Part shown: piece after piece, positions 4,637 to 60,354 of the stretch | Numbering within the stretch: position 1 is the stretch's first letter | Layout: the number at the start of each line of letters is the position of its first letter | Assembly: GCA_965215015.1 (NCBI GenBank) | Contig: OZ244042.1 | Location: forward strand, 5,280,001-5,344,000 | Direction of reading: 5' to 3' | DNA from: Candidatus Poribacteria bacterium | Lineage (GTDB): Bacteria; Poribacteria; WGA-4E; PCPOR2b | DNA: 64,000 bases | The notes under the pieces: generated by a model | What the model saw: the letters and a program-made list of their open reading frames with translations, nothing else | Told to the model about the DNA's origin: nothing | Database searches by the model: none | Program-made: the position numbers and the translations under genes

Positions 4637-4885
4637 CCCCCTAACCCCTGCTAGCCGGGGGGAAGACGTGCAATGAATTGCACTACTACAAACTCACGCC
4701 CCGGTCTATACCCGCGCAATCTGGGCGGGATGATTCTACAGATTGTTAGGTGAAACCTAAAAGCCACGCGCAATGAACGCGCTACTACGAACAGGAGGAA
4801 AAGGAGGCGTGCCCCCACCGCTAAGATAAGAACCCCCTAGCCCCCCGCAAGCGGTGGGGAATTTGCAGGTGGGGGGACAATCCGT
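4637..4885. repeat. Mosaic REP-like repeat cluster
   Basis: Contains modules CCCCCTA(A/G)CCCCC.GCAAGC.GGGGG, GACGTGCAATGAATTGCACTACTACAAAC and AGGAGGAAAAGGAGGCGTGCCCC, which recur at 21.4, 28.7, 34.8 and 58.9 kb. Confidence 0.9.
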
Positions 4886-5050
4886 GGCAAGTGGTATCCC
4901 TTTAGTCAGACGGGTTCGGCTTGTGGTTTTGTTAATGAGGTGCTGAATCTGTGTGACGGGACATGGCAGTGTCCCAGCTGCGATACACAGTTAGATAGAG
5001 ATTGCACCGCCGGGGTCAATATCTTTAGGGTGGGGGCGTCCCCTCTCAGG
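4883..5050 (+). pseudogene. tnpB: tnpB 3' remnant (zinc ribbon and RuvC-III region)
   Basis: Translates RGKWYPFSQTGSACGFVNEVLNLCDGTWQCPSCDTQLDRDCTAGVNIFRVGASPL, matching the TnpB consensus wyPSSktCs.CG...L.L.dR.W.Cp.C....DRD.NAa.NI; no N-terminal part. Confidence 0.85.
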
Positions 5051-5183
5051 AGAAGGGGTAAACCCATCTTCGGATGGTCCACTTTGACGGCTGTTAGGCC
5101 ATACCTAACAGACAGGATAGAGCAATTCCACTCCTAAAGGATTAGGTAAGGGCCCCAATTCTTTAGGAGTGGGAGTACGTCAA
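5026..5183 (+). mobile_element. IS200/IS605 right end / omegaRNA region of a decayed tnpB element
   Basis: Directly follows the tnpB remnant; hairpins CTGTTAGG/CCTAACAG and CACTCCTAAAG/CTTTAGGAGTG; ends GGGAGTACGTCAA, a TCAA-type right end. Confidence 0.75.
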
Positions 5184-5216
5184 CAGGGAATTCTTGCATA
5201 TAGGTTGGAGATATGA

Positions 5217-13225: not shown

Positions 13226-14542
13226 CTACTCAAGCCTCGCCTCGATCCGTTTGACAATTTCTTCTCTTGTGAAGGTTTGCTCCAGATTCATCACATAGAC
13301 GCCGAGGTTTTCGGAGCTGTCCTCCTGTCCGACAAAGACAATTCGTGTGCCATCGGGGGTAAAGATTGGGTCGGTATTGATGACCTCGTTGTTGGTGAGT
13401 TGTCTCTGATTTTTACCGTCTGCGTCCATCATAATAATTTCGGTGTCGCCATCTCTATAGGAATCAAAAACGATTTGCGTGCCATCGGGTGAAAAAGCGG
13501 GGTGCGCGTTAATCGCTGGATCATCTGTCAATTTTATGAAATTGCTTCCATCGCTACTAACGACGCAAATTTGGCTAGAAACGCCAAGGGGCCCACCTAC
13601 AGCGTAAGCGGCGAAGGCGATACGTGCTCCGTCGGGGGAGAATGCCGGTCCGTGGTTATTGGTTTGGGTTTGGGTTAATTGTTTCTGATTCGCGCCATCT
13701 GCGTCCATGATATAAATTTCACTGTTTATGCCGGCTCTGTTCGATTCAAAAGCAATTTTGCCACCGTCGGGGGAAAAGGTCGGATTGCTATCCGTGGCAG
13801 TATTGGCGGTCAGGCGTTGGTTCGCTTTTGTATTGATATCTGTGACGAAAATTTCGTCGTTTGGGTTGTGCCATCGAATAAAAGAGACGTAGGCGACTTT
13901 TTTGGCATCGGGAGATAGAGCGGGGTTGTAGTCACTGGTATCGTTGAAGGTCAGCCGCTGCCTGTTTTCTCCGTTGATATCCGCGATGTTCATGACATAA
14001 ATCTCGTTATTGTCGTCAACGAAAGCGGTGAAAGCGACCGTATCAACGGCGGTTGAAACGTCATGAATTTGGACAAAGTTGGGGGTCAAACGGGTGCTTG
14101 GATAGGTGTCGCCGGTGAGTTTGCCAATCTTTTGAACCCAATCTTCTCGCTGCGAATTCTGCAGAATCTTCAAAAATGAACTCAGTGCAAACCTGTCGTG
14201 TCCAGCCGCCATGTACGCTTCTCCCAACGCAAGTTGTACCTCAATGCGTTGCGGTGCGGCCCTGGCAGCAGTTCTCAGGGATTCAATCGCCTCAGTATGG
14301 TGGTCTAGCTTCAGATATGCCAGTCCCAGTTGATAATGGGCTTCTGGGTTCTCCGGTGCTCCCTCTAGCAACTGCTGAAAATATGCGACCGCCCCCTGAT
14401 AATTACCGGCTGCAAGTAACCCTTTGCCTCTTTTTATAGATGTGTCTTCTCCGCAGCCGGACAGCGACACCAGCAGGATCAGGTATACTAAAACCGTGAA
14501 ACGTGATAGATAAGTTACACTGATGGGATTATATTTGTTCAT
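13226..14542 (-). CDS. Lipoprotein with TPR repeats and TolB-like PD40 beta-propeller
   Basis: Lipobox LSGC; TPR motif PEAHYQLGLAY; repeated P.FSPDG..I.F.S motifs. Confidence 0.88.
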   Translation of the reverse strand: MNKYNPISVTYLSRFTVLVYLILLVSLSGCGEDTSIKRGKGLLAAGNYQGAVAYFQQLLEGAPENPEAHYQLGLAYLKLDHHTEAIESLRTAARAAPQRIEVQLALGEAYMAAGHDRFALSSFLKILQNSQREDWVQKIGKLTGDTYPSTRLTPNFVQIHDVSTAVDTVAFTAFVDDNNEIYVMNIADINGENRQRLTFNDTSDYNPALSPDAKKVAYVSFIRWHNPNDEIFVTDINTKANQRLTANTATDSNPTFSPDGGKIAFESNRAGINSEIYIMDADGANQKQLTQTQTNNHGPAFSPDGARIAFAAYAVGGPLGVSSQICVVSSDGSNFIKLTDDPAINAHPAFSPDGTQIVFDSYRDGDTEIIMMDADGKNQRQLTNNEVINTDPIFTPDGTRIVFVGQEDSSENLGVYVMNLEQTFTREEIVKRIEARLE

Positions 14543-14600
14543 TGGCTCATTAGTTTAGCAATAGTCTCCTTTAGGGGTAACACACTTCACTTTAACAGGT

Positions 14601-14635
14601 TTGTATTGATTTTGTCTGTGAAATTATGATACATT
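14601..14635 (+). promoter_or_regulatory. Putative sigma70 promoter upstream of the structured RNA candidate
   Basis: TTGTAT-18-TATGAT or TTGATT-18-TACATT (TG-extended) in an AT-rich stretch. Confidence 0.4.
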
Positions 14636-14640
14636 TTCCT

Positions 14641-14841
14641 AGCTTTCGTGGGAGTGTCTCACCCCTATCGCACGATAGGGACTCGTACCTCCCGTGAGAC
14701 GGAATGAGAGAACGCCTGTTAGGCAAAGCCTAACCGAGAGGCTACAAGCCATCTGACAGCGGCTAACAGACAGGATAGAGCCATTCCACTCCTAAAGGAA
14801 CAAGTAAGAATCCCAAGCCTTTAGGGGTGGGGGTACGTCAA
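14641..14841 (+). ncRNA. Candidate stand-alone IS200/IS605 omegaRNA-like structured RNA, or non-autonomous IS end
   Basis: 3' ~80 nt is homologous to 5105-5183 and ends GTACGTCAA; multiple stems; no tnpB ORF upstream. Confidence 0.55.
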
Positions 14842-15100
14842 AAGTTCATCGCTATACGTCTATCGCCCCGCCCCGATAGGTCGGGATTCAAAAGCAAGGT
14901 GCTTACTACTGTTTCCCGCTTCAATTGGGATTGGGTGTTGGGTTTCACGGTTCCCGTTTAACCCCACTCCGTTCGGAGGGTCTTCGACCTACGCGATGTC
15001 AAATGTCAACACGCCCTAGCAAAGCCATTTTTAGGTCATTTGAGGGATTTGCCCCAAAATGGACCTTCTCAAAGACGGATTGGAAATGTTTGACGGATTC

Positions 15101-15835
15101 TTAACCCTCATGATTTTGCCAATCGATTTCATCAAGTGTCTCTGCGGTCAGCACTTTCTCAAAAAGTGAATCCAAACGGGACAGACTCCGTATCAAGCTA
15201 ATCTGACTGGTTACAGATTCAGGAACGGAATCAAATCGGAACCGCAGCAGCTTGAGGAGTACCGCCTGTGTCGCTTGGGTTTTGCCCTGTTCAATGCTCT
15301 GTTCAATGCCTTGTTTAATGCCCTGTTCAATGCCTTGTTCAATACCTTGTTTAATGCCCTGTTCAATACCTTGTTCAATACCTTGTGCTTTGCCCTGTTC
15401 AATGAGATGCTCTGCCATTGTCTGCACCATGAATCCTACCTCCTCTCTATCTGAAGACTCTTGAATATGTTGGGCTACAAGTCTGCTTAACTCTTCTTTG
15501 AAATGTTTGACGGATTCTTGGCCATCATGATTTTGCCAATCGATTTCATCAAGTGTTTCTGCGGTCAGCACTTTCTCAAAGAGCGAATCCAAACGGGACA
15601 GATTCCGTATCAAGCTAATCTGATTGACTACAGATTCAGGAACGGAATCAAATCGGAACCGCAGCAGCTTGAGGAGTACCGCCTGTGTCGCTTGGGTTTT
15701 GCCCTGTTCAATGCCTTGGGCTTTGCCCCGTTCAATGCTCTGTTCAATGCCTTGTTTAATGCCCTGTTTAATGCCTTGTTTAATGCCTTGGGCTTTGCCC
15801 TGTTCAATGAGATGCTCTGCCATTGTCTGCGCCAT
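15101..15835 (-). CDS. Two fused Rpn C-terminal (RpnS/DUF4351-like) cassettes; second internal start at 15430
   Basis: Two copies of M(A/V)QTMAEHLI-(xQGx)n-...LDEIDWQNH, each preceded by GAGGAGG; CAA at 15518-15520 where other copies have TAA. Confidence 0.75.
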   Translation of the reverse strand: MAQTMAEHLIEQGKAQGIKQGIKQGIKQGIEQSIERGKAQGIEQGKTQATQAVLLKLLRFRFDSVPESVVNQISLIRNLSRLDSLFEKVLTAETLDEIDWQNHDGQESVKHFKEELSRLVAQHIQESSDREEVGFMVQTMAEHLIEQGKAQGIEQGIEQGIKQGIEQGIEQGIKQGIEQSIEQGKTQATQAVLLKLLRFRFDSVPESVTSQISLIRSLSRLDSLFEKVLTAETLDEIDWQNHEG

Positions 15836-15922
15836 GAATCCTACCTCCTCTCTATCTGAAGACTCTTGAATATGTTGGGCTACAAGTCTGCTTAACTCTT
15901 CTTTGAAATGTTTGACAGATTC

Positions 15923-16447
15923 TTAACCATCATGATTTTGCCAATCAATTTCATCAAGTGTCTCTGCAGTCAGCACTTTCTCAAAAAGTGAGTCCAAACG
16001 CGACAGACTCCGTATCAAGCTAATCTGATTGACTACAGATTCAGGAACGGAATCAAATCGGAGCCGCAGCAGCTTGAGGAGTGCCGCCTGTTTCGCTTGG
16101 GCCTCACCCTGTTCAATGAGATGCTCTGCCATTGTCTGCGCCATGAATCCTACCTCCTCTCTATCTGAAGATTCTTGAATATGTTGGGCTACAAGTCTGC
16201 TTAACTCTTCGTGCTCCGCCACAGGACGACGATGTAATATCAGCAAAAGCAGATAGGATATCGCCCGACGACGCTGCCGCGCTTGCGCTTCACCAAGAGT
16301 ATTGATGTGCAACATCGCTTCGATTAACGCACCCCTTATCACTGCCTTGGACCCATCTTCCTTTTGCAAAACCGTTAACAACCACCCAAGCGGATGGTCA
16401 GTCCGCGTCAACTTCGCTTCATCTGTCTCCTTCATACTGAGAAACAG
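15923..16447 (-). pseudogene. 5'-truncated duplicate of the rpn gene containing an intact RpnS-like ORF (15923-16144, 73 aa)
   Basis: Near-identical to the 3' half of 16521-17807; lacks the nuclease N-terminus; GAGGAGG-N7-ATG at 16144. Confidence 0.8.
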
Positions 16448-16520
16448 TTTTTAGGTCATTTGAGGGATTTGCCCCAAAATGGACCTTCTCAAAGGCAGAT
16501 TGGAAATGTTTGACGGATTC

Positions 16521-17807
16521 TTAGCCATCATGATTTTGCCAATCGATTTCATCAAGCGTCTCTGCGGTCAGCACTTTCTCAAAAAGTGAGTCCAAACGCG
16601 ACAGACTCCGTATCAAGCTAATCTGATTGACTACAGATTCAGGAACGGAATCAAATCGGAGCCGCAGCAGCTTGAGGAGTGCCGCCTGTGTCGCTCGGGC
16701 CTCACCCTGTTCAATGCCTTGTTCAATGCCTTGGGCTTTGCCTTGTTCAATACCTTGTTCAATGCCCTGTTCAATGCCTTGTTCAATGCCTTGTGCTTTG
16801 CCCTGTTCAATGCCTTGGGCTTTGCCCTGTTCAATACCTTGGGCTTTGCCCTGTTCGATACCTTCGGCTTTGCCTTGTTCGATACCTTCGGCTTTGCCTT
16901 GTTCAATGCCTTGTGCTTTGCCTTGTTCAATGCCTTGGGCTTTGCCCCGTTCAATGAGATGCTCTGCCATTGTCTGCGCCATGAGTCCTACCTCCTCTCT
17001 ATCTGAAGACTCTTGAATATGTTGGTCTACAAGTCTACTTAACTCTTCGTGCTCCACCACAGGACGACGATGTAATATCAGCAAAAGTAGATAGGATATC
17101 GCCCGACGCCGCTGCCGCGCTTCCGCTTCACCAAGAGTATTAATGTGCAACAGCGCTTCGATTAACGCACCCCTTATCACTTCCTTGGACCCATCTTCCT
17201 TTTGCAAAACCGTTAACAACCACCCAAGCGGATGATCAGTCCGCGTCAACTTCGCTTCATCTGTCTCCTTCACACTGAGAAACAGGGTGTCGAACTTCGG
17301 GACAAACCGAGAAAACACATCGGAAGTGTCCATGACTGCATCGAGGGTCAACGGGGTGCCCCATCTCTGTTCGCCGGTGTAGAATACAATCGGGAGAATC
17401 GGACGGAAACGCCACTGACTTTTGGGAACATTGTTGGATTCCCACTCCCGGCGTTGGGCATCCCAAATCTGGGTCATGTAGAACAGCACCCGAAATCCCA
17501 TTATCACATCGACGGTGGATTGGTGTTCGATGAGGATATAGATTAGCAGCTGGTCGGTTTCTGATTCGCTATGGAGTGGCACGCTAAATACGAGGTCCGA
17601 TTCCTGCTGTCGGAGGTTGTCGGTTATAAAACTCCTGTTAATCTGTGCGAGTTGGGTAAAATCGATGAGTTCTACCAGTTCGGTTGCGAGGATTTCTAAC
17701 AATCCTCGGACATTGTGTTTATCTTGAAACAACCATCGGGCACTCCGGTCGGGGAAGTGTTCAATGTGTATGTCGAAAAAATTGAGGATTTCTGTTGCTT
17801 CTACCAT
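16521..17807 (-). CDS. Rpn family recombination-promoting nuclease/putative transposase (YhgA-like PD-(D/E)xK)
   Basis: SFITDNLRQQESDLVFSV, YILIEHQSTVD, RVLFYMTQIW and PILPIVFYTG motifs; C-terminal (EQGI/K) tetrapeptide repeats; AAGGAG RBS; internal GAGGAGG-N7-ATG at 16982. Confidence 0.92.
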   Translation of the reverse strand: MVEATEILNFFDIHIEHFPDRSARWLFQDKHNVRGLLEILATELVELIDFTQLAQINRSFITDNLRQQESDLVFSVPLHSESETDQLLIYILIEHQSTVDVIMGFRVLFYMTQIWDAQRREWESNNVPKSQWRFRPILPIVFYTGEQRWGTPLTLDAVMDTSDVFSRFVPKFDTLFLSVKETDEAKLTRTDHPLGWLLTVLQKEDGSKEVIRGALIEALLHINTLGEAEARQRRRAISYLLLLILHRRPVVEHEELSRLVDQHIQESSDREEVGLMAQTMAEHLIERGKAQGIEQGKAQGIEQGKAEGIEQGKAEGIEQGKAQGIEQGKAQGIEQGKAQGIEQGIEQGIEQGIEQGKAQGIEQGIEQGEARATQAALLKLLRLRFDSVPESVVNQISLIRSLSRLDSLFEKVLTAETLDEIDWQNHDG

Positions 17808-21321: not shown

Positions 21322-21357
21322 AACGCAAATGGGTTGATTGGGACATGGGTTCAGAAG

Positions 21358-22760
21358 TCCCCTAACCCCCCTAGCCCCCCCGCAAGCAGGGGGGAATTTG
21401 TAGGCCGGGGGGCAGACGTGCAATGAATTGCACTACTACAAACTCACGCCCCGTCTATACCCCTGCAAGCAGGGGGGAATTTGCATGGGGGGAGAGGAAG
21501 AGCTCCCACCAAGCCGGGGGGCAGACGTGCAATGAATTGCACTACTACAAACTCACGTCCGGTCTATACCCCCACAAGGAGGGAGGGGTCATTCTACAGA
21601 TTGTTAGGTGAAACTTAACAAGCCACGCGCAATGAATTGCACGACTTCTAACTGAATTGCATAACTTCTAATAAATAGCAAACAAGACCTAATGCTCTCT
21701 GACCAGGGCAACTCTTAGGTTTGTAGTAGGGCGATTCATCGCCCGTCCAAACGCCGGGGGACAGACGTGCAATGAATTGCACTACTACAAACTCACGCCC
21801 CCCCTAACCCCCCCGCAAGCAGGGGGGAATTTGCATGGGGGGAGAGGAAGAGCTCCCACCAAGCTGGGAGGGGACATGCCACGCGCAATGAATGGCGCGA
21901 CTACGAACTGAATTGTATAACTTATAATTGATAACAAAACAAGACCTAATGCACTCTGACCAGGGCAACTCTTAGGTTTGTAGTAGGGCGATTCATCGCC
22001 CGTCCAAACGCGCAATGGGCGCGGTACTACGAACTGAATTAAGGGCGTTTCCAAGCCGGGGGAGCAGACGTGCAATGAATTGCACTACTACAAGCCCACC
22101 CCCCCCTAACCCCCCCGCAAGCAGGGGGGAATTTGCATGGGGGGAGAGGAAGAGCTCCCACCAAGCTGGGAGGGGACATGCCACGCGCAATGAATGGCGC
22201 GACTACGAACTGAATTGTATAACTTATAATTGATAACAAAACAAGACCTAATGCCCGCTGACGAGGAAACCTCTTAGGTTTGTAGTAGGGCGATTCATCG
22301 CCCGTCCAAACGCGCCATGGGCGCGGTACTATGAACTGAATTAAGGGCGTTTCCAAGCCGGGGGGTAGACGTGCAATGAATTGCACTACTACAAGCCCAC
22401 CCCCCCCCCTAACCCCCCCGCAAGCGGGGGGGAATTTGCATGGGGGGAGAGGAAGAGCTCCCACCAAGCTGGGAGGGGACATGCCACGCGCAATGAATGG
22501 CGCGACTACGAACTGAATTGTATAACTTATAATTGATAACAAAACAAGACCTAATGCACTCTGACGAGGAAACCTCTTAGGTTTGTAGTAGGGCGATTCA
22601 TCGCCCGTCCAAACGCGCCATGGGCGCGGTACTATGAACTGAATTAAGGGCGTTTCCAAGCCGGGGGACAGACGTGCAATGAATTGCACTACTACAAACT
22701 CACCCCCCCTAACCCCCCCGCAAGCAGGGGGGAATTTGCAAGGGGGGAATTTGTTGGTGG
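21358..22760. repeat. BIME-like REP array: three ~302-bp units plus degenerate 5' units
   Basis: GACGTGCAATGAATTGCACTACTAC at 21415, 21524, 21764, 22067, 22368 and 22671; units contain GTAGTAGGGCGATTCATCGCCC and the CCCCCC-GCAAGC-GGGGGG hairpin. Confidence 0.95.
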
Positions 22761-22872
22761 GGGGGCGTTTACCCTCACTTTCACTCGGAATGGCTCTCTT
22801 TGTGGATAGGGTGATTCTACTCCTAAAGGGACAGCGAAGAATCCCAAGCCTTTAGGTTTGGGAGTATGTCGA
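22755..22872 (+). mobile_element. Degenerate IS200/IS605 right-end remnant
   Basis: CTACTCCTAAAGGG...AAGAATCCCAAGCCTTTAGGTTTGGGAGTATGTCGA is homologous to 14786-14841. Confidence 0.7.
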
Positions 22873-28623: not shown

Positions 28624-29236
28624 TGCAACATGGACGCGGTACTATGAACTGAATGAAGGGCATTTCCAAGCCGGGGGGTAGACGTGCAATGAATTGCACT
28701 ACTACCAACTCACGTCCCCTAGCCCCCCCGCAAGCAGGGGGGAATTTGTTGGTGGGGGCGTCTATCAATACTTCTACATCGTAGTGGTCCAAGTCTTGAG
28801 CCCCTTACGAGTTTCTGGTATAGGAGTTACGCATTTCGGTTTGTAGTAGGGCGATTCATCGCCCGTCCAAACGCAACATGGACGCGGTACTATGAACTGA
28901 ATGAAGGGCATTTCCAAGCCGGGGGGTAGACGTGCAATGAATTGCACTACTACCAACTCACCCCCCCTAGCCCCCCCGCAAGCAGGGGGGAATTTGTTGG
29001 TGGGGGCGTCTACCAACACTTCTACATCGTAGTGGTCCAAGTCTTGAGCCCCTTACGAGTTTCTGATATAGGAGTTACGCATTTCGGTTTGTAGTAGGGC
29101 GATTCATCGCCCGTCCAAACGTGCCATGGACGCGGTACTATGAACTGAATGAAGGGCATTTCCAAGCCGGGGGGTAGACGTGCAATGAATTGCACTACTA
29201 CCAACTCACCCCCCCTAGCCCCCCCGCAAGCGGGGA
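28624..29236. repeat. REP array: about 2.5 copies of a 248-bp unit
   Basis: CATGGACGCGGTACTATGAACTG at 28629, 28877 and 29125; ~160-bp core shared with the 21.4-22.7 kb array. Confidence 0.93.
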
Positions 29237-29357
29237 AGGTGATTATGGCAATACGATAAAAGCGTACACCAAAGCGATAGAAATCAAGCCACAGGTTATG
29301 TCCCTACTTTAACGAATGCGCTATACATCGCGCTGCTCTGGAGCGCGGGAAAATGAT

Positions 29358-31571
29358 ATGGAAAAACTTGTAGGTATCCTCGAACGCATTGTTTTTGAAA
29401 ATACGGAATCGGGCTATACCATCGCCCGATTGACCTCGCGTGATTACCCGAATGAACTGATCACCGTTGTAGGGAATCTTGCCGCCGCGAATGCCGGTGA
29501 GAGCCTCGCTCTCAAAGGGGAGTGGGTCAACAACCCGCAGTACGGTAGGCAGTTCAAGATCGAGGGGTATGAGACGGTGCTACCCGCAACAGTCGTTGGG
29601 TTGCGGAAGTACCTCGGTTCGGGGATGATCAAAGGCATCGGGCCGGTGATGGCGTCGCGAATCGTCAATAAGTTCGGGATGGACACGATGGAGGTGATTG
29701 AACAGACTCCCGAAAAGCTGAAGAGGGTTTCGGGAATCGGCAGCAAGCGTGTGGATACGATTAAGGTGGCGTGGGCAGCGCAACGCGAGATCAAAAACGT
29801 GATGCTCTTTCTGCAATCCAACAACGTCAGCACCGCCCATGCGGTCAAAATCTATAAAACCTACGAAAGCGAATCGATCGCGATTGTCCGTGAGAACCCC
29901 TATCGTCTGGCTGATGATATTTATGGAATAGGCTTCAAAACTGCGGATACCATTTCGCAAAATCTGGGTATCGCGCCTGAATCTCCGCATCGGGTGATGG
30001 CGGGCATAAAGTATGTCTTGAGCCATAAGGCGGATGACGGTCACGTTTTCCTGTATCGAGATGAATTGCTCACCGCGTGTGAGGAAATTTTAGAGCTCCC
30101 GCCCGATACAATTGAAGCCGGGATGGCAGAATTGAGTGCGAAAGAGGAAATTATTTCCGAAAATACGCCGACGGGAGAGGGGGTCTACCTCGCGCCATTT
30201 TATTATGCGGAGATTGGCGTCACCAATGCAATTTCAAAGTTATTGCAAATCCCTGCCCATCCTGTCCAACTCGGTTTTGTTGACGCGTCAATTGACCGGC
30301 TTGAAAAGCAGATGGGGATTCGTTTTGCTGCCAATCAGCGCGAGGCAGTTAAGACTGCGTTGACCGCTAAGGTGATGCTCTTGACAGGTGGGCCGGGGAC
30401 CGGAAAAACAACGACAACAATCGGCATGATCCGCCTCTTTGAAGTGCTTGAAAAAAGCGTTCTGCTGGCGGCACCCACCGGACGGGCAGCGAAACGCCTC
30501 AACGAGACGACTGGACGCGAAGCCAAGACCATCCACCGCCTGTTGGAGTTTTCGCCGCAGGAGAACGGTTTCAAACGGAATCGGGAGAACCCGTTGGATG
30601 CGGACGTGGTCATCGTTGATGAGATGTCAATGGTTGATCTGGTGTTGATGAACAACCTGATGAAAGCGGTGCCGCAGCGTGCAACCCTCATCATGATTGG
30701 CGATGTGGACCAACTTCCATCGGTGGGAGCGGGGAATGTCCTGACAGACCTGATCGCTTCTGGGCAGGTTACGGTTGTCACATTGACGGAGATTTTTCGT
30801 CAAGCGCAGCAGAGCTACATCGTCACCAACGCGCATCGCATCAATCGTGGCGAATTTCCGCAGACCACCGGCCCCGCCGACCGCAATTTCTTTTTTATAG
30901 AGGAGGAAGATCCGGATCGCGCGGTTGACCTGATATGTGACCTTGTGGGAAAACGTTTGCCGAAGCACTACGGTTACCACTCAATGGACGATATTCAGGT
31001 GCTCTGCCCGATGCGGCGTGGCACGGTTGGGTCTGAAAATTTCAACAAACGTTTGCAGGCAATCCTCAACGCTTCCTCGGAAGATGCGATTCGCGGGGGG
31101 CGAAATTTTCGCGTCGGAGATAAGGTGATGCAGATTCGGAACAACTACGACTATGAGGTTTTTAACGGTGACATTGGGCGCATCACCGATGTGGACTTCA
31201 TCGAGAAAGAGGTCACGATCCAATTCCCTGAAAAGCGTGTTGCTTTTGACATGGCGGATCTGAACGAATTGGTGCTAGCTTATGGTATCACGGTCCATAA
31301 GGCGCAGGGCAGCGAGTATCCTGCTGTCATTGTGCCGCTGATGACGCAGCACTATCTGATGCTGCAACGAAATCTCCTCTATACCGGCATTACGCGGGCG
31401 AAGGAGTTGGTCATCCTTGTTGGGACTAAGAAGGCACTCGGTATAGCGATCCGGAATAACAAGGTTGTTGAGCGGAATAGCTTTCTCGCTGAGCGACTTC
31501 GGGGTGCTTTGGGTGGAGATGCGGCGCACCTTCAGGATTGGATGGGGGAAGGTAGAGAGCGGATCGCGTAG
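29358..31571 (+). CDS. recD2: ATP-dependent RecD2-like DNA helicase
   Basis: N-terminal HhH (IKGIGPVMA), TGGPGTGKT, AAPTGRAAKR, VDEMSM, GDVDQLPSVG, TVHKAQGSE and LYTGITRAK. Confidence 0.95.
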   Translation: MEKLVGILERIVFENTESGYTIARLTSRDYPNELITVVGNLAAANAGESLALKGEWVNNPQYGRQFKIEGYETVLPATVVGLRKYLGSGMIKGIGPVMASRIVNKFGMDTMEVIEQTPEKLKRVSGIGSKRVDTIKVAWAAQREIKNVMLFLQSNNVSTAHAVKIYKTYESESIAIVRENPYRLADDIYGIGFKTADTISQNLGIAPESPHRVMAGIKYVLSHKADDGHVFLYRDELLTACEEILELPPDTIEAGMAELSAKEEIISENTPTGEGVYLAPFYYAEIGVTNAISKLLQIPAHPVQLGFVDASIDRLEKQMGIRFAANQREAVKTALTAKVMLLTGGPGTGKTTTTIGMIRLFEVLEKSVLLAAPTGRAAKRLNETTGREAKTIHRLLEFSPQENGFKRNRENPLDADVVIVDEMSMVDLVLMNNLMKAVPQRATLIMIGDVDQLPSVGAGNVLTDLIASGQVTVVTLTEIFRQAQQSYIVTNAHRINRGEFPQTTGPADRNFFFIEEEDPDRAVDLICDLVGKRLPKHYGYHSMDDIQVLCPMRRGTVGSENFNKRLQAILNASSEDAIRGGRNFRVGDKVMQIRNNYDYEVFNGDIGRITDVDFIEKEVTIQFPEKRVAFDMADLNELVLAYGITVHKAQGSEYPAVIVPLMTQHYLMLQRNLLYTGITRAKELVILVGTKKALGIAIRNNKVVERNSFLAERLRGALGGDAAHLQDWMGEGRERIA

Positions 31572-34794: not shown

Positions 34795-35835
34795 GCGACC
34801 TACCGCTAAGATTAAGAACCTACCCCCCCTAACCCCCCCGCAAGCAGGGGGGAATACGTGCAATGAATTGCACTACTACAAACAGCAGGAAAAGGAGGCG
34901 TGCCCACACCCCTAAGATAAGAACCTACCCCCCCTAGCCCCCCCGCAAGCAGGGGGGAAGACGTGCAATGAATTGCACTACTACAAACAGCAGGAAAAGG
35001 AGGCGTGCCCACACCCCTAAGATAAGAACCTACCCCCCTAGCCCCCCCGCAAGCAGGGGGGAAGACGTGCAATGAATTGCACTACTACGAACAGGAGGAA
35101 AAGGAGGCGTGCCCCCACCCCTAAGATAAGAACCCCCCTAGCCCCCCCGCAAGCAGGGGGGAATTTGTTGGTGGAGGGCAATCCGTGGAGGGTGGTATCG
35201 CTCTAGTCAGATGGGTTTGGCTTGGGGTTTTGTGAATACGGTATCTCCTCCCCCTGCTTGCGGGGGGATTGAGGGGGGTAGCCTCTTTGTTGGTGGGGGG
35301 CAATCCGTGGGAGGTGGTATCGCTGCTGAGGGTAAGAAGTGCGGTCGTGCCCCACTGCTAAGATAAGCCCCCCTAGCCCCCCCCGCAAGCAGGGGGGCAG
35401 ACGTGCAATGAATTGCACTACTACGAACAGGAGGAAAAGGAGGCGTGCCCCCACCCCTAAGATAAGAACCCCCCTAGCCCCCCCGCAAGCAGGGGGGAAT
35501 TTGTTGGTGGGGGGCAATCCATGGTAGGTGGTATCGCTCTAGTCAGATGGGTTTGGCTTGGGGTTTTGTGAATACGGTATCTCCTCCCCCTGCTCGCGGG
35601 GGGATTGAGGGGGGTAGCCGCAATGTTAGATAGAGAGGGCACCGCCGGGGGAAAGCCTCCCTAACCCCAAATACCCATACGGACTCTCTTCCCCCTGCTA
35701 AATACCCTGTGGGTTGTCCGTTAATTCTAGGCTCATTGAGCCTAGAACGGTCTGATACCGTGTGGGTATTCGGGATTGAGGGGGGTAGCCTCTTTGTTGG
35801 TGGGGCGTCCACCCTTACTTCCGCATCGTAGTGAT
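34795..35835. repeat. Mosaic REP cluster with ~105-bp tandem units, a ~336-bp duplication and tnpB-derived modules
   Basis: AGAACC-anchored units at 34815, 34920, 35025 and 35129; GTGGTATCGCTCTAGTCAGATGGGTTTGGCTTG twice; TTAGATAGAGAGGGCACCGCCGGGG near 35626. Confidence 0.92.
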
Positions 35836-42994: not shown

Positions 42995-43040
42995 GGTGTG
43001 TTCCTCTATAATTGCTAGGATATATGTAAAATACCTTTAA

Positions 43041-43330
43041 GACCCCCCTCGGTCCCCCCGCAAGCGGGGGGATGGGTGCAGGCGTGGTTCATTCACAGTC
43101 CCTGCCGTAAGAACCCCCCTCGGTCCCCCCGCAAGCGGGGGGATGGGTGCAAGTGGGGTTCATTCACAGTCTCTACTACACTTTCATTGCCATAAGACCC
43201 CCCCTCGGTTCCCCCGCAAGCGGGGGGAGGGTGCAAGTGGGGTTCATTCAGACCCCCCCTCAGTCCCCCCCGCAAGCAGGGGGGATGGGTGCAGGCGGAG
43301 GGGAAACCGTGTGGGTATTCGGGATTAGGG
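43041..43330. repeat. Four copies of a CCCCCTC(G/A)GTCCCCCCGCAAGC(G/A)GGGGG hairpin unit with variable linkers
   Basis: Copies near 43043, 43114, 43198 and 43253, each followed by GGGTGCA. Confidence 0.9.
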
Positions 43331-49692: not shown

Positions 49693-49917
49693 GATAGGGG
49701 TCGCAGAAACCCCTTGCAATGCTGTGGGTTTGTGTGATACTATCGCAGCGTACCCCCCCTAACCCCCCCGCAAGCAGGGGGGAATTTGCAAGCCGAGGGA
49801 GGAGGCAACCTGTAAGGAGGGGAGGGGGTAAGTGTGAGGTAGAAAACTCACCAGGGGAAATCAAAAAACAACGCTCCCGCAAGTAAATGATACGATGACA
49901 ATTGTGGAGGTAACCGT

Positions 49918-53623: not shown

Positions 53624-54790
53624 TTGGAGATGGCAAATCAACCCACCGTCACGATTGAACAATGGTTTACCGAGGGCTGGAAGCTGTACAAACGGCATCC
53701 GGTCACTTTTTTCTTTGCAAGTTTGCTTGGATCGTTAATTTGTATCCCACCGGCTTTTCTGTTTTTCGCTGCCCCGCTTTATGCGGGTTTGTATTATATG
53801 GCGTTGAAAGTGATGCGTGGAGAAAAGCCACGGATTCGCGATATTTTCAAGGGATTTCGCCGGTATTGGGGCGCGTTATTTCTATGGTGGTTATCTCTGA
53901 TTGCATTTATCGTGCTGTGTACAACGGGGATTGGCATCTTGGTAACACCACTGGTCTGGGCGATTTCGATGTTGGCGTTTCCATTGCTAATTGATGAACG
54001 GAAAGGCGTTGGTTCCGCCTTTGATACTGCGTTTAAGACTGTGTTTACATGGAAGAATTGTGCACGATTGTGGCTGTATGGATTGGCGGTGCCCCTTGTC
54101 TCATGTCTTGGCGTGTTGGGTTTTTTCTTCGGTCTTTTTATCACCGTTCCGCTTGCCGTTTGTGTTCAAGTGATTGCCTATCGGGACCTCTTCAAGCCTG
54201 AGGAAGCCATTCAACAGGAGGTGCTTGAGCCGTGGCAGGAATATCCCTTCAAACTCAAAGCCAAATATATTGGACCTGTTTCGCGAATTCGTGACATCCG
54301 CAACCAAATTTTTGAGCAGATTCATTCTGCTAACGATGGTGTCAAATCGCTGCTGGAAGGTTCGATTGAGCATATTGATAATGTTTTCGCGAAAGCTGCC
54401 CACCTCATTCATCGTCAACAACAGCTTGATGACTACCTAGAAACAACGAACATGCAAACGCTGCACAATGAAAAGATAGAAATCACGAGAAAATTGGCAG
54501 AGTCACCCAACGCTGCGGTGTATGCTCAATATGAGGAGGCATTACAAACCCTTGAGGAACGTATTGAAAATCATGGGCGGCTTGAAGAATTAAGGCAACA
54601 GATTGATGCGCGGTTAATGACAATTCGTGTGTCGCTTGACAACACACATGCCAAAATCATCCGGATCCGGACGACCGAGATAAGTAACGCTCATCTTGAA
54701 AGTGATGATGTTTCTAAAGCCTTGCGCGATTTACAGATTGAGATGGATGCGTTGTTGAAGAGTCTAGATGAAATGTCGGAGGCAGCTTGA
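53624..54790 (+). CDS. Hypothetical membrane protein with C-terminal coiled coil
   Basis: About five N-terminal TM segments followed by a long helical region; GGAG upstream of MANQP. Confidence 0.75.
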   Translation: MEMANQPTVTIEQWFTEGWKLYKRHPVTFFFASLLGSLICIPPAFLFFAAPLYAGLYYMALKVMRGEKPRIRDIFKGFRRYWGALFLWWLSLIAFIVLCTTGIGILVTPLVWAISMLAFPLLIDERKGVGSAFDTAFKTVFTWKNCARLWLYGLAVPLVSCLGVLGFFFGLFITVPLAVCVQVIAYRDLFKPEEAIQQEVLEPWQEYPFKLKAKYIGPVSRIRDIRNQIFEQIHSANDGVKSLLEGSIEHIDNVFAKAAHLIHRQQQLDDYLETTNMQTLHNEKIEITRKLAESPNAAVYAQYEEALQTLEERIENHGRLEELRQQIDARLMTIRVSLDNTHAKIIRIRTTEISNAHLESDDVSKALRDLQIEMDALLKSLDEMSEAA

Positions 54791-54831
54791 CAGGATAGCC
54801 GTTGGTTCATTAGTTCATGCTCATTTTTTCA

Positions 54832-55527
54832 GTTTGTAGTAGCGCGATTGATTGTGCGTCCCAACGGGTGATGAATCGCCCTACTCCATACATGAGGAAA
54901 CGATGATGCGGTTTGTAGTAGCACAATTCATGGCGCGTCCCAACGGGCGATGAATCGCCCTACTCCATACATGAGGAAACGATGATGCGGTTTGTAGTAG
55001 CGCAATTCATGGCGCGTCCCAACGGGTGATGAATCACCCTACTACATACGTGAGGAAACGATGATGCGGTTTGTAGTAGCACAATTCATGGCGCGTCCCA
55101 ACGGGCGATGAATCGCCCTACTCCATACATGAGGAAACGATGATGCGGTTTGTAGTAGCACAATTCATGGCGCGTCCCAACGGGTGATGAATCACCCTAC
55201 TACATACGTGAGGAAACGATGATGCGGTTTGTAGTAGCACAATTCATGGCGCGTCCCAACGGGTGATGAATCACCCTACTACATACATGAGGAAACGATG
55301 ATGCGGTTTGTAGTAGCGCAATTCATTGCGCGTCTCAACGGGCGATAAATCCCCCTACTCCATACATGAGGAAACGATGATGCGGTTTGTAGTAGCGCAA
55401 TTCATTGCGCGTCCTAACGGGCGATCAATCCCCCTACTCCATACGTGAGGAAACGATGATGCGGTTTGTAGTAGCGCAATTCATTGCGCGTCCCAACGGG
55501 CGATCAATCCCCCTACTACATACATGG
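54832..55527. repeat. Tandem array of nine 79-bp REP doublets (REPIN/BIME-like)
   Basis: GTTTGTAGTAGC at 54832, 54911, 54990, 55069, 55148, 55227, 55306, 55385 and 55464; each unit has two inverted GTAG-type palindromes. Confidence 0.97.
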
Positions 55528-55548
55528 GGTGATAGTGGAGGAGGAAGT

Positions 55549-56997
55549 GTGGAAAGGGAGAGCGACTGTCGGACTTCAGATTTTCATGTTGTATTATTGA
55601 GCAACTCTCAGATTAGAAGGGTTTTTCTGCCCTGTTTTTTTTATTTCGCGTTCTTTTGTTGGATAGCTACCGCGGCTGAATCCGCGCCACACCCAAGATT
55701 TGGAGGCATCTTACAGGGGGCAATTTTTCAGCCAGTTACAACGCTTGATGCGGTCAACTATCTCAGTTTTGCGGAGTTACAGGTCGCATCAAATCTGTAC
55801 GAGGGGTTGGTAAAACGAGATCGGTTCGGACGAATGGGTGCTGCCGTTGCCCAGGGGTGGACGCATTCCGATGATCACCGAATTTGGACATTTGTAATCG
55901 CACAGGGGATAGCATTTCACAACGGCAAACCGGTGACAGCGGTTGATGTGAAACTGGCTTGGGAGCGATTTGTGCGAGATGGGGTATGGCTGGTTTCTCC
56001 ACAACCCTTATTGCTGATTCGAGGTGCCGAGGCGTATCGAAACAACACGGTGACACAGATTGAAGGGATTCAGGTGCTTGATGATTCCCGCCTCCAAGTT
56101 ACATTGGAAGCGGGTGATCCGGAATTTCTGGGGAAACTGACCTCGCCGGCGGCGTGGGTAGTAACACCGGGGGATTCGCAACCCATTGGTACGGGGCAAT
56201 TTCGCTTGGAGTCCTTTGGTCGGACAGAGGTGCGATTGATGGCGAACTCGGATTACGTTTGGGGCAGCCCTTATTTGGAGCAGCTGACTTTCCGTTATTA
56301 TGCAAATTTAGATGAAGCTCTGTTTGATTTTGAATCGGGCGTTTTAGACGCCTTGCCGCTTCCCGTTACAGAGGTGGAGAGACGCCAACGTGAGCGGCTT
56401 GATGACATTTTGATCCAGACAGATGCGGCAACGCTTGTATATCTTCGTCTACCCGATGAGGTTGAGCTTGTCAGGGTGCCGCAAACCTCACCTGGACCGA
56501 CTTGGCACAATGTGCTGAAATATGCCGTTGATCCACGCGCACTCTTACATTTACAGTACGGGGAAAATCCCTCCAAAATGGTATTGGTTCCCTTTCCGTT
56601 ACCCCACAATCGTGTAAAGGCGCGCAGACGGTTGAGGCATGCAGGGTGGAATGAGCCGCTCAATCTGGTCTATGCACAGCTGCCGGACAACACGGGCAAT
56701 GCGATTGCAACGTGGCTAGCGCGTAATTCTCTTTCGCAGATTGGGTTGCAGGTAGAGGTCAAAGCGGCGGATCCCGATAGTTTACAGGGCGGATTCAAGG
56801 GAGATACGACGTTGGCTTTGCTATCCATGCCAGTTGCGCTAGAAAACGGTGCTGCATCTTTAAACATCGGTCCGCCCAATTCTTTGATTCCGCTTTATCT
56901 CCTACCTGCTAGCTTTCTATGTCAGTCGAAGGTCCGGGGAGTGAAGGTTGTATCGGGGGGCGTCCTTGCATTTGAGGGCGCGTGGCTAGCGCAGTGA
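55549..56997 (+). CDS. ABC transporter substrate-binding protein, family 5 (OppA/DppA-like)
   Basis: LYEGLV, FHNGKPVTAVDVK, PIGTGQFRL and PYLEQL; the ORF-track start (55405) lies inside the repeat, so GTG 55549 after GGAGGAGG is preferred. Confidence 0.8.
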   Translation: MERESDCRTSDFHVVLLSNSQIRRVFLPCFFYFAFFCWIATAAESAPHPRFGGILQGAIFQPVTTLDAVNYLSFAELQVASNLYEGLVKRDRFGRMGAAVAQGWTHSDDHRIWTFVIAQGIAFHNGKPVTAVDVKLAWERFVRDGVWLVSPQPLLLIRGAEAYRNNTVTQIEGIQVLDDSRLQVTLEAGDPEFLGKLTSPAAWVVTPGDSQPIGTGQFRLESFGRTEVRLMANSDYVWGSPYLEQLTFRYYANLDEALFDFESGVLDALPLPVTEVERRQRERLDDILIQTDAATLVYLRLPDEVELVRVPQTSPGPTWHNVLKYAVDPRALLHLQYGENPSKMVLVPFPLPHNRVKARRRLRHAGWNEPLNLVYAQLPDNTGNAIATWLARNSLSQIGLQVEVKAADPDSLQGGFKGDTTLALLSMPVALENGAASLNIGPPNSLIPLYLLPASFLCQSKVRGVKVVSGGVLAFEGAWLAQ

Positions 56998-58104: not shown

Positions 58105-58683
58105 ATGATTAGAAAAGTAAGCATGGCATTTTGCCTCATCGTGACCGTTCTGTTTATTTGGGTCTGGCACCATCAGAGTCAGTTTAATGACCATTCGCGC
58201 AAGGGCTTTTTTCATTTGAGGAATGGCGAATTGGATGAAGCGGCTGAGGCGTATACCAAAGCGATCAAGAACAAAGAGCGGACAATCTTTTTCACTCAAG
58301 AACCTTCGGCGTATAATAATCTCGGTCAAGCGTATCTGCGTAAAGGGGAGTACGCTTCGGCGATCGCTGCGTTCCAAAAAACACTGGCAATGCGGCCCGA
58401 TGCGGTTGGGGCTTATATCAATCTGGCAACCGCCTATCTGAAACAGAACTTACCAGATTCGGCGATTGAATCTTGTGAATCCGCAATTGAGATAGCCCCA
58501 GATGTTGCACACCTCCACTTTAACCTCGCTTGTGCCTATGCGCTTAAAAACGAGGACCAGAAATCAATTGATTCCCTCCAGAGAGCGGTTGCGCTTGATG
58601 GACGGATGCGGATACTTGCAAGAGAAGACAGCGTATTCGATCGCCTCCGCTCACACCCCATTTTTTCTGCTTCGTCTAAGTGA
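58105..58683 (+). CDS. Membrane-anchored TPR protein
   Basis: AYNNLGQAY, AYINLATAY and HFNLACAYA. Confidence 0.9.
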   Translation: MIRKVSMAFCLIVTVLFIWVWHHQSQFNDHSRKGFFHLRNGELDEAAEAYTKAIKNKERTIFFTQEPSAYNNLGQAYLRKGEYASAIAAFQKTLAMRPDAVGAYINLATAYLKQNLPDSAIESCESAIEIAPDVAHLHFNLACAYALKNEDQKSIDSLQRAVALDGRMRILAREDSVFDRLRSHPIFSASSK

Positions 58684-58689
58684 GTAACC

Positions 58690-59450
58690 TACCCCCCTCA
58701 GTCCCCCCGCAAGCAGGGGGAGCTACCCCCCTCAGTCCCGAATACTCACACGGTATCTCTTCCCCCTGCTTGAGGGGGGTAGGCTCAATGAGGCAGGAAC
58801 TGACGGACAACCCACCGGGTATTTAGCAGGGGGGAATTTGTTGGTGGGGGCCAATCCGTGGAGGGTGGTATCGCTGCTGAGGGTAAGAACGCGCAATGAA
58901 TTGCGCTACTACAAACAGGAGAAAAAGGAGGTGTGCCCTACCGCTAAGATAAGAACCCACCCCCCTAGCCCCCCCGCAAGCAGGGGGGGATTTGTTGGTA
59001 GGGGCCAATCCGTGGAGGGTGGTATTGCTGCTGAGGGTAAGAAGTGCGGTCGTTCCCTACTGCTAAGATAAGAACCCACCCCCCTAGCCCCCCGCAAGCA
59101 GGAGGGAAGACGTGCAATGAATTGCACTACTACAAACTCACGCCCCCTCTATACCCCCGCAAGCCGGGGGGGATTTGTTGGTGAGGGACAATCGGTGGAG
59201 GGTAGTATCGCTCTAGTAAGATGGGTTCGGCTTGTGGTTTTGTGAATGAAGTGCTGAATCTTCGGGACAGGATATGGCAGTGTCCGAACGGCGATACAGA
59301 GTTAGATAGAGATTGCACCGCTGGGGGAAAGCCCCCCTAGCCCCAAATACCCATACGGTATCTCTTCCCCCTGCTTGCGGGGGGATTGAGGGGGGTAGGG
59401 TCAATGAGGCAGGAACTGACGGACAACCCACCGGGTATTTAGCAGGGGGA
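58690..59450. repeat. Mosaic REP cluster including a tnpB-derived block (about 59191-59325)
   Basis: Same modules as the 4.6 and 34.8 kb clusters; the block translates *YRSSKMGSACGFVNEVLNLRDRIWQCPNGDTELDRDCTAG. Confidence 0.9.
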
Positions 59451-59652: not shown

Positions 59653-59725
59653 GCTGGCGTAGCTCAGTTGGTAGAGCGAGTGATTTGTAATCACTTAGTC
59701 GGGGGTTCAAGTCCTCTCGCCAGCT
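59653..59725 (+). tRNA. tRNA-Thr(TGT)
   Basis: GCTGGCG/CGCCAGC acceptor stem; AGTGA-TTTGTAA-TCACT anticodon arm; GTTCAAG T-loop. Confidence 0.95.
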
Positions 59726-59743
59726 TTCACTCTATCTTAAAGT

Positions 59744-59825
59744 GGGGGGATACCCAAGTGGTCAACGGGAGCAGACTGTAAATCTGTTGGCACTGCCTGC
59801 GGAGGTTCAAATCCTTCTCCCCCCA
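59744..59825 (+). tRNA. tRNA-Tyr(GTA)
   Basis: GGGGGGA/TCCCCCC acceptor stem; GCAGA-CTGTAAA-TCTGT anticodon arm; long variable arm. Confidence 0.95.
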
Positions 59826-59873
59826 TCATTCCTAAGCGTCGGAGACGCGGCCCTGTGGCGTCCCAAGCAAAAC

Positions 59874-59946
59874 GCGGGAGTAGCTCAGTTGGTAGAGCAT
59901 TGGCCTTCCAAGCCAATTGTCGCGGGTTCAAGTCCCGTCTCCCGCT
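59874..59946 (+). tRNA. tRNA-Gly(TCC)
   Basis: GCGGGAG/CTCCCGC acceptor stem; TTGGC-CTTCCAA-GCCAA anticodon arm. Confidence 0.95.
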
Positions 59947-59983
59947 TTTAGGTTTTGCTTCCAGGCGTGTGTTTCCTAGTTAT

Positions 59984-60059
<76 letters not shown>

Positions 60060-60104
60060 TCCCGTTTTTTGACTCGCTGCAGTCAAAGGAAATTGGGGGG
60101 TATT

Positions 60105-60257
60105 ATGCCAAGAGATATTGTCACGTTGGCGTGTGATGATTGCAAACAGCGAAATTATGCCACAACAAGAAACAAAAGAACGCAGCAAGCGCGTTATGAG
60201 TTGAAGAAATATTGTCGCTATTGTCGTAAGCACACACCGCACAAAGAGGTTCGATAG
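60105..60257 (+). CDS. rpmG: 50S ribosomal protein L33 (Zn-binding form)
   Basis: MPRDIVTLACDDCKQRNY...ELKKYCRYCRKHTPHKE. Confidence 0.96.
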   Translation: MPRDIVTLACDDCKQRNYATTRNKRTQQARYELKKYCRYCRKHTPHKEVR

Positions 60258-60280
60258 CGTTTTAATTAATTTTGTCTTGC

Positions 60281-60354
60281 AGGCCAGTAGCTCGAACGGC
60301 TAGAGCGTCGGTCTCCAAAACCGAATGTTGGGGGTTCGAATCCCTCCTGGCCTG
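60281..60354 (+). tRNA. tRNA-Trp(CCA)
   Basis: AGGCCAG/CTGGCCT acceptor stem; TCGGT-CTCCAAA-ACCGA anticodon arm. Confidence 0.95.

Follow-up and report, generated by a model that had tools for sequence, protein, structure and literature searches.

Positions 14559-14841 (+) of the window, the whole 64,000-nucleotide stretch of DNA that was analysed, were identified from sequence as an internally deleted, gene-less IS200/IS605-family tnpB element of 283 nt. In all likelihood the element is a PATE/MITE-like fossil whose tnpB was lost by internal deletion, and it is probably inert. Its 5' half (14606-14713) is a tnpB left end with the promoter of tnpB and a pseudoknotted leader that covaries, and its 3' portion is a tnpB right end in which the upstream half of the omegaRNA scaffold is missing. 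The original prediction had placed here a single omegaRNA-like fold serving as an orphan guide RNA, or else a non-autonomous element. The listed stems, taken together, are a chimera of left-end leader and right-end scaffold and not one RNA fold; the second option stands, as a gene-less element with an empty site in a congener. Coordinates are collected in Table 1.

Table 1. Features of the element, its surroundings and related loci. Positions are those of the window unless a locus (L) is named.
Feature	Position	Strand	Details
TPR + PD40 (TolB-like beta-propeller) gene	13226-14542	-	start codon 16 nt from the left end of the element
TTAG target and expected TAM	14555-14558	+	host side of the left end
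Left-end terminus, CAATAGTCTCCTTTAGGGGTAAC...	14559-14599	+	subterminal hairpin deleted relative to siblings
tnpB promoter remnant	14606-14635	+	TTGATT, 18 nt, TACATT; TG at 14627-14628; aligned with sibling promoters
tnpB leader RNA motif	14642-14713	+	P1 14648-14655/14681-14688; P2 14663-14669/14674-14680; pseudoknot 14656-14662/14694-14700; purine-rich tail
Stem GTCTCAC/GTGAGAC	14656-14662/14694-14700		present
Stem CCCTATC/GATAGGG	14663-14669/14674-14680		present
Pair GGGAG/CTCCC	14650-14654/14689-14693		present; crosses the GTCTCAC/GTGAGAC stem
Stem GGAATG/CATTCC	14701-14706/14782-14787		present
Stem CTGTTAG/CTAACAG	14716-14722/14763-14769		present
Stem CCACTCCTAAAGG/CCTTTAGGGGTGG	14786-14798/14818-14830		present
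Deletion junction, leader to right-end sequence	14713-14716	+	homology limits and unique junction query
3' portion, right end and omegaRNA scaffold	14716-14841	+	optional hairpin GTTAGGC/GCCTAAC, GATAGAGCCATTC, terminal hairpin region, GTACGTCAA
Flank, would-be guide AAGTTCATCGCTATACGTCT	14842-14861	+	directly after the right end
Target form expected for the 14842-14861 guide			TTAG + AAGTTCATCGCTATAC
DUF4351 gene	15101-15835	-	downstream of the element
Leader copies	window 14642-14700; L012, L013, L017, L018, L022-L024, L026, L028, L032, L033, L035, L038-L042, L048, L049		
~420-nt gene-less element, congener G018	L054:1335-2000; L056:1335-2000; L057:1020-1690	-; -; +	three copies read

Ends, insertion site and deletion junction

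The ends of the element were set at 14559 and 14841 because congener G003 has the two flanks joined and the length of flank plus flank equals that of its empty site, with no target-site duplication. The left flank (to 14554) and the right flank (from 14844) lie 6 nt apart in G003. Its aligned empty site reads ...CATTAGTCCAG|AAGTTCATTGC, with TCCAG at the position of TTAG and then directly AAGTTCAT; the occupied site here reads ...CATTAGTTTAG[CAATAG...GTACGTCAA]AAGTTCATCGC, and the right end ...GTACGTCAA stops at 14841. In the comparison of empty sites in relatives, proposed in the original prediction, a clean empty site was obtained at one of the nine congener loci examined (G003). IS200/IS605 elements insert 3' of a specific short target without duplicating it. 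TTAG preceded 6/6 inspected left ends of the subfamily (the present element, L042, L043, L044, L045 and L035), and the empty-site joint expected here is TTAG + AAGTTCAT.... In four DNA-contig runs of one study, probably from the source sample, the element was in place with 0 differences across both ends, and no empty-site joint was found at the locus. Apparent joints in these runs from 14576/14581 to 14762 were considered as an empty-site form and rejected; the letters at their loose ends are those of the L044/L045 flanks, i.e., of paralogous 177-nt mini-elements.

The stretch is free of ORFs, as predicted: no ORF of at least 60 aa was found in 14543-15100 (frames of 44-59 aa only). A single frame, of 44 aa on the minus strand, overlaps the element, and no tnpB codons are kept (no HSP here in tblastn with the L035 TnpB).

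Positions 14601-14865 were searched by blastn against the complete 5.94-Mb genome and gave 51 HSPs, 42 of which reach the right-end terminus. Both halves of the element are members of multi-copy families: the last 60-80 nt of the query recur about 40 times, and the first ~85 nt occur at a handful of loci, several of which have the 3' part 240-600 nt downstream. In sibling loci the left end runs in the order TTAG|C(A/G)ATAGTCTCCTTTAGG..., hairpin, sigma-70-type promoter, ~65-nt leader, purine-rich stretch and ATGAAAACCTACAAGTTCAAG (tnpB start), and continues straight into the tnpB start ATGAAAACCTACAAG.... The terminus ...AAGAATCC-hairpin-GGGAGTATGTCAA of the right end is also found on intact tnpB elements and on the tnpA+tnpB elements L060 and L061. 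An intact element of congener G017 (L035) encodes a 372-aa TnpB, and its left and right ends are 78% and 84% identical to those of 14559-14841; because both ends flank TnpB in L035, the present element was read as left and right end fused upon deletion of the gene. Homology to the leader of L024 stops at ~14712, and right-end homology begins at CTGTTAGG, 14716. A query over the junction (14685-14775) matched in full at its own locus only among 20 genus genomes, and its other matches were pieces of 22-33 nt, mostly the small hairpin.

A subterminal left-end hairpin of the CCCAA.../...TTGGG type is present in L042, L044, L045 and L035 and is deleted here. In L042, L044 and L045 it reads AACCCCCAAAGG-TTTA-CCTTTGGGGGTT, of which the present copy retains only CCTTTAGGGGTAAC.

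Right-end scaffold and fold of the locus

For the omegaRNA model R2, 14 right ends from congeners and from the same genome were aligned and folded with RNAalifold. Compensatory changes occur at 16 of the 29 consensus pairs. These pairs form a first stem, another stem around a variable hairpin, a long-range helix (AGGA/UCCU) and a guide-proximal hairpin (CCCAA.../...TTGGG). Columns 35-38 and 95-98 of alignment A2 form the long-range helix, in which the 5' arm of the right-end hairpin at DNA level takes part; the modelled folds suggest that the right end folds differently as RNA and as ssDNA.

R2 matched the window at exactly three places (5021-5183, 14747-14841 and 22732-22872), the same three copies from which the original prediction had proposed to build a covariance model, and the whole genome at 71 omegaRNA-like right ends. 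The right-end/omegaRNA origin assigned to the 3' part is upheld by this family model and by the terminus common to tnpB elements. The match at 14747-14841 scored 58.6 bits and ranked 43rd of the 71 (best in the genome, 137.9 bits). Of the 138 model positions, 39 are deleted here (the S-b/S-c domain), and the first stem, S-a, is mis-paired. With the upstream half of the scaffold, this copy lacks the first stem, the hairpin domain together with its enclosing stem, and the AGGA strand on the 5' side of the AGGA/UCCU helix; unrelated left-end sequence stands in place of this half. Homology of the 3' part to the sequence after the tnpB remnant was confirmed at 85% over 82 nt (window 5105-5186). A cluster of repeat modules interrupts this tnpB remnant upstream of 5021-5183. 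The near-intact leader and the well-preserved guide-proximal scaffold could reflect either youth or constraint.

Every stem listed in the original prediction is present (Table 1). Folded as a 220-nt RNA (14642-14861), the locus gave an MFE of -74.8 kcal/mol, compared with -61.3 +/- 4.5 kcal/mol in dinucleotide shuffles (z = -2.98; 0/200 shuffles as good). GGAATG/CATTCC is not a conserved pair, because it bridges the deletion junction that is unique to this copy. The CTGTTAG stem, which encloses about 40 nt here, had been taken as a structure kept despite an indel. In the MFE fold this region forms a local hairpin, GTTAGGC-AAA-GCCTAAC at 14718-14734, after which the 3' arm is repeated, and the same arrangement is found in sibling L047. 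One subfamily (L041, L044-L047, L036/L037) has an optional hairpin in this region, and the CTGTTAG pairing is more simply explained by the local hairpin and its duplicated arm, which make up the enclosed 40 nt, than by conservation.

The match to Rfam suggested as a check gave no family. Rfam 15 was searched with the window at gathering score (tRNAs only), with 14400-15100 (0 matches at E up to 10) and with eight sibling/congener loci including complete elements at E up to 1 (two chance-level matches to unrelated families).

Promoter and pseudoknotted leader of tnpB

Sibling promoters read TTGAAA/TTGATT-17-TATACT/TATAAT, and the copy here aligns with them. The putative promoter of the original prediction is thus homologous to stronger sibling promoters, but it matches the consensus at only 8/12 positions and remained uncalled in the promoter scan. 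Residual transcription may arise from this weakened promoter. No terminators were found in 14450-15150 by the promoter/terminator scan.

The pseudoknot suspected in the original prediction is real, but it belongs to the covarying left-end tnpB leader and not to an omegaRNA. In siblings the leader lies directly upstream of the tnpB ATG. It starts about 7 nt past the -10 box, and its G-U pairs are found on the sense strand; because of this strand and this start position, it was taken to be an RNA element with which the tnpB mRNA begins. The P2 hairpin and the 5' strand of the pseudoknot both lie inside P1, and the 3' strand of the pseudoknot comes after P1. Twenty copies from the same genome and from congeners were aligned (truncated copies L047 and L050 left out); they precede two tnpB N-terminal types, MKTYKF... 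and MKKTFEY.... Pairing was seen in 95% of cells for P1 (8 bp) and in 90% for P2 (7 bp), and compensatory changes occur at 5/8 and 6/7 pairs, respectively. The covariation score of the whole structure was 0.362, compared with 0.184 when shuffled (0/500 reached it) and 0.10-0.17 when partners were slid. The crossing helix was mis-registered in the MAFFT alignment (52% of cells paired) and was therefore scored sequence by sequence. A contiguous helix of at least 6 bp that links the sequence enclosed by P1 to the tail downstream of P1 was found in 15/20 copies, compared with 62/370 cross-pairings between different copies, and the 20 copies carry 16 distinct 5' strands.

A covariance model of P1 and P2 (R1) scored 64.5 bits at this locus, where 7/8 P1 pairs, all of P2 and all of the pseudoknot are kept. 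R1 found 19 leader copies in the same genome and matches in 15/16 other genomes of the genus, with up to 82 scored per genome. Across the order, 20/61 genomes in 4/11 genera were matched in all, with few matches beyond the genus. Leader counts roughly track tnpB counts, from one tnpB match and no leaders (G010) to 101 tnpB matches and 82 leaders (G002).

No Rfam family matched the leader, and no description of the pseudoknot was found in the literature searched (TnpB left end/UTR pseudoknot; IS605-orfB). The strand order of the leader (P1/PK-5'/hairpin/P1'/PK-3') recalls that of a nested double pseudoknot (HDV-like). An HDV-like or other small ribozyme was considered and rejected: no ribozyme family matched, and the hairpin has 7 bp and a 4-nt loop, not a short P3 with a long loop. 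An upstream ORF at a conserved ATGAAAG after the leader was rejected because its ATG is not conserved among copies.

Neighbouring genes and surrounding repeats

The element lies between two minus-strand genes (Table 1), and the 5' UTR of the TPR/PD40 gene must now cross it in antisense (spacer 14543-14558). The TPR/PD40 gene may be affected by it. Co-option of the insertion as a regulatory element would go further: the UTR would run antisense through the element, the retained promoter homologue would be convergent with it and antisense also to the downstream DUF4351 gene, and expression of the neighbours would be modulated. The position relative to both genes and the different UTR architecture of G003, which is without the insertion, fit such a role. 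However, 14450-15150 contains no minus-strand promoter-like site in the scan, the element's own promoter is a weak match, and nothing sets the insertion apart from a neutral one. Co-option was therefore judged improbable.

Repeats are abundant in the window. The genes clustered on the minus strand at 15028-17233 are paralogues whose C-termini are of DUF4351 type and which contain repeats with a 12-nt period (28 copies in register); blocks of 200-300 nt recur there at 79-95% identity. Very abundant short interspersed or tandem repeat modules are found at 4654-4885, 21350-22760, 28625-29370, 34800-35630, 43027-43310, 49737-49808 and 58676-59450, and include a C-rich palindrome CCCCCCCGCAAGCAGGGGGG (18-22 copies) and GCAATGAATTGCACTACTACAAAC (12 copies). 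At 54674-55605 a 79-nt unit is repeated in tandem about 9-12 times at 92-96% identity, in an array that contains the GGGCGATGAATCGCCC palindrome module, and five tRNA genes are clustered at 59653-60354 (+).

Partner proteins and guide targets

The original prediction proposed that this locus supplies a guide in trans to a TnpB or TnpB derivative elsewhere in the genome. The genome was searched with Pfam models, by tblastn and with an HMM, and no intact tnpB was found; the longest open frame is 173 aa, compared with 369-408 aa in congeners. PF07282 gave 19 genome matches and PF01385 four, all in open frames of at most 109 aa, and PF12323 gave one of 35 aa. The L035 TnpB gave 58 tblastn HSPs, fragments only; the longest of them span residues 1-169 at one locus and 197-370 at another. 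With an HMM made from 12 intact TnpBs of congeners, 39 of 35,711 frames of at least 60 aa were matched, the longest again 173 aa. Nor was an intact Y1 tnpA found in the genome: PF01797 matched twice, in a copy interrupted by a TAA and in a 91-aa frame. PF07282 matched 611 times in 20 genomes of the genus, and among the 150 matches listed most congeners have open frames that reach 340-485 aa; intact Y1 genes of 142-165 aa adjoin tnpB in congener elements that share the right-end terminus. Within the reach of these searches the tnpB/tnpA family appears extinct in this lineage, although a very divergent effector might have escaped Pfam, tblastn and the HMM alike. An intact tnpB with the same end, sought as a further check, is thus absent from the genome itself but present in congeners (L035, 372 aa). 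The genome retains 71 omegaRNA-model matches and 19 leaders; most congeners have tens of intact tnpB.

The guide begins immediately after ...TCAA, where the original prediction had placed it. It matches its own flank alone: one genome match was found with at most 2 mismatches in 16 nt, and over 20 nt three 4-mismatch genome matches were found, all without TTAG. The proposed search for targets of the 3' flank therefore yielded no second genome match with at most 2 mismatches in 16 nt.

A working locus would require that the promoter drives an omegaRNA-like RNA and that a TnpB or TnpB-derived repressor elsewhere targets TTAG-flanked AAGTTCATCG... sites. In favour of this, the terminus and the guide-proximal hairpin of the right end are as they should be and the guide is in the right position, a family promoter homologue lies upstream, and gene-less elements of congener G018 combine a complete scaffold with a promoter of their own (L054, L056, L057). 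PATEs are also described as often encoding omegaRNAs that are used in trans (PMC10055086). Set against these points are the tnpB-like sequences of the genome, all of which are fragments, the missing 39-position internal scaffold domain with its unpaired first stem, the guide that matches only its own flank, and a junction that is a one-off. A functioning guide locus was accordingly considered very unlikely.

Two cautions follow for genome annotation and for screens. What looks like a structured orphan omegaRNA can be a chimera of left and right ends that arose by deletion, and a complete genome can carry 71 omegaRNA-like right ends without an effector, which matters where standalone guide RNAs are counted as functional.

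Related gene-less elements and proposed history

A 177-nt mini-element was found at genome positions 2887652-2887828 (L044) and 5187715-5187888 (L045), and consists of the left-end hairpin and, immediately after it, the final ~100 nt of the right end. Between this mini-element and 14559-14841, the right ends are 96% identical. Because the two loci share the same junction at 92.6% identity, mini-elements of this family are taken to have transposed. That 14559-14841 is itself a true PATE, still moved in trans by a Y1 TnpA, is scarcely credible: the lack of genes, the left and right termini that can still be recognised, the TTAG target and the mini-element of the same lineage at two loci would fit such a PATE, but the left-end subterminal hairpin is deleted, the genome has no intact Y1 tnpA, the copy is single with a unique junction, and the element was in place in all four DNA-contig runs of one study with no empty-site joint.

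The fossil reading comes with the following history. The ancestral element inserted 3' of TTAG, 16 nt upstream of the minus-strand TPR/PD40 start codon. An internal deletion, either before or after insertion, joined the left end to the final ~126 nt of the right end. The break falls ~15 nt ahead of the tnpB ATG, for which reason the left end retains the promoter and the pseudoknotted leader. A second small deletion took out the left-end hairpin needed by the Y1 transposase. With neither this hairpin nor a TnpA, the element would now be immobile, and it would also be without an effector. The weakened promoter, if still firing, would produce a chimeric transcript of leader, partial omegaRNA and flank, with no partner protein and no function.

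In the ~420-nt gene-less element of congener G018, left-end hairpins and an extended -10 promoter of its own (TGGTATAAT) are combined with a non-coding stretch of ~190 nt and an omegaRNA scaffold that is complete; ten G018 matches were found for its 22-24-nt hairpin. As G018 has many intact tnpB, this element appears the better candidate for a standalone guide-RNA cassette than 14559-14841. Taken together with the leader, a broader reading is conceivable, at somewhat less than even odds: the leader, with tens of copies per genome in this genus and a start at the predicted transcription start of tnpB, would be an undescribed class of structured RNA that controls translation or stability of the tnpB mRNA, and gene-less derivatives made of promoter, leader and right end could be expression cassettes for guide RNAs used in trans in TnpB-bearing congeners. 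If the leader does regulate tnpB, it would add a layer of control to a transposon family now used in genome editing. The leader pseudoknot is in this respect a more interesting by-product than the element itself.

Comparison with known systems

ISDra2 provides an example of the TnpB omegaRNA (reRNA) of IS200/IS605 elements. The PATEs, gene-less derivatives of such elements, are reportedly also the subject of a Haloquadratum paper (PMC3119063).

Rfam holds the transposon-associated RNA families IS605-orfB-I (RF03065) and HEARO (RF02033), as listed in PMC11701678. Like them, the present RNA elements are structured and tied to IS605-family accessory genes; unlike them, the locus has no Rfam 15 match at E up to 10. 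TldR is described as a TnpB-like, nuclease-dead repressor with guide RNA loci (bioRxiv 10.64898/2026.09.22.753285). The likeness is one of concept, a TnpB-type guide RNA in host regulation, whereas here no TldR- or TnpB-like frame longer than 173 aa is present in the genome, and the guide has no promoter-overlapping target elsewhere.

Sense-overlapping ncRNAs have been described at the 3' end of IS1341-type tnpB (PMC4615843). The 3' 95 nt of the present element resemble a TnpB omegaRNA in matching the right-end model and in having as guide the flank after the ...TCAA end; they differ in that left-end sequence stands in place of the upstream half of the scaffold.

A close likeness is to the PATEs, which are described as gene-less IS200/IS605 derivatives in Geobacillus stearothermophilus (Meers et al. 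2023, PMC10055086) and, in the same source, as often encoding omegaRNAs that TnpB of other elements must use in trans. The 14559-14841 element likewise has no protein gene, IS605-family termini and a short specific target without duplication, and keeps a right-end/omegaRNA portion, any use of which would need TnpB in trans. It differs in lacking the left-end hairpin, so that it does not have both palindromes, in keeping the tnpB promoter and leader alongside a truncated omegaRNA scaffold, and in residing in a host genome without intact TnpB or TnpA. Gene-less, omegaRNA-bearing PATE elements have already been published, and 14559-14841 is one more, decayed member of that group.
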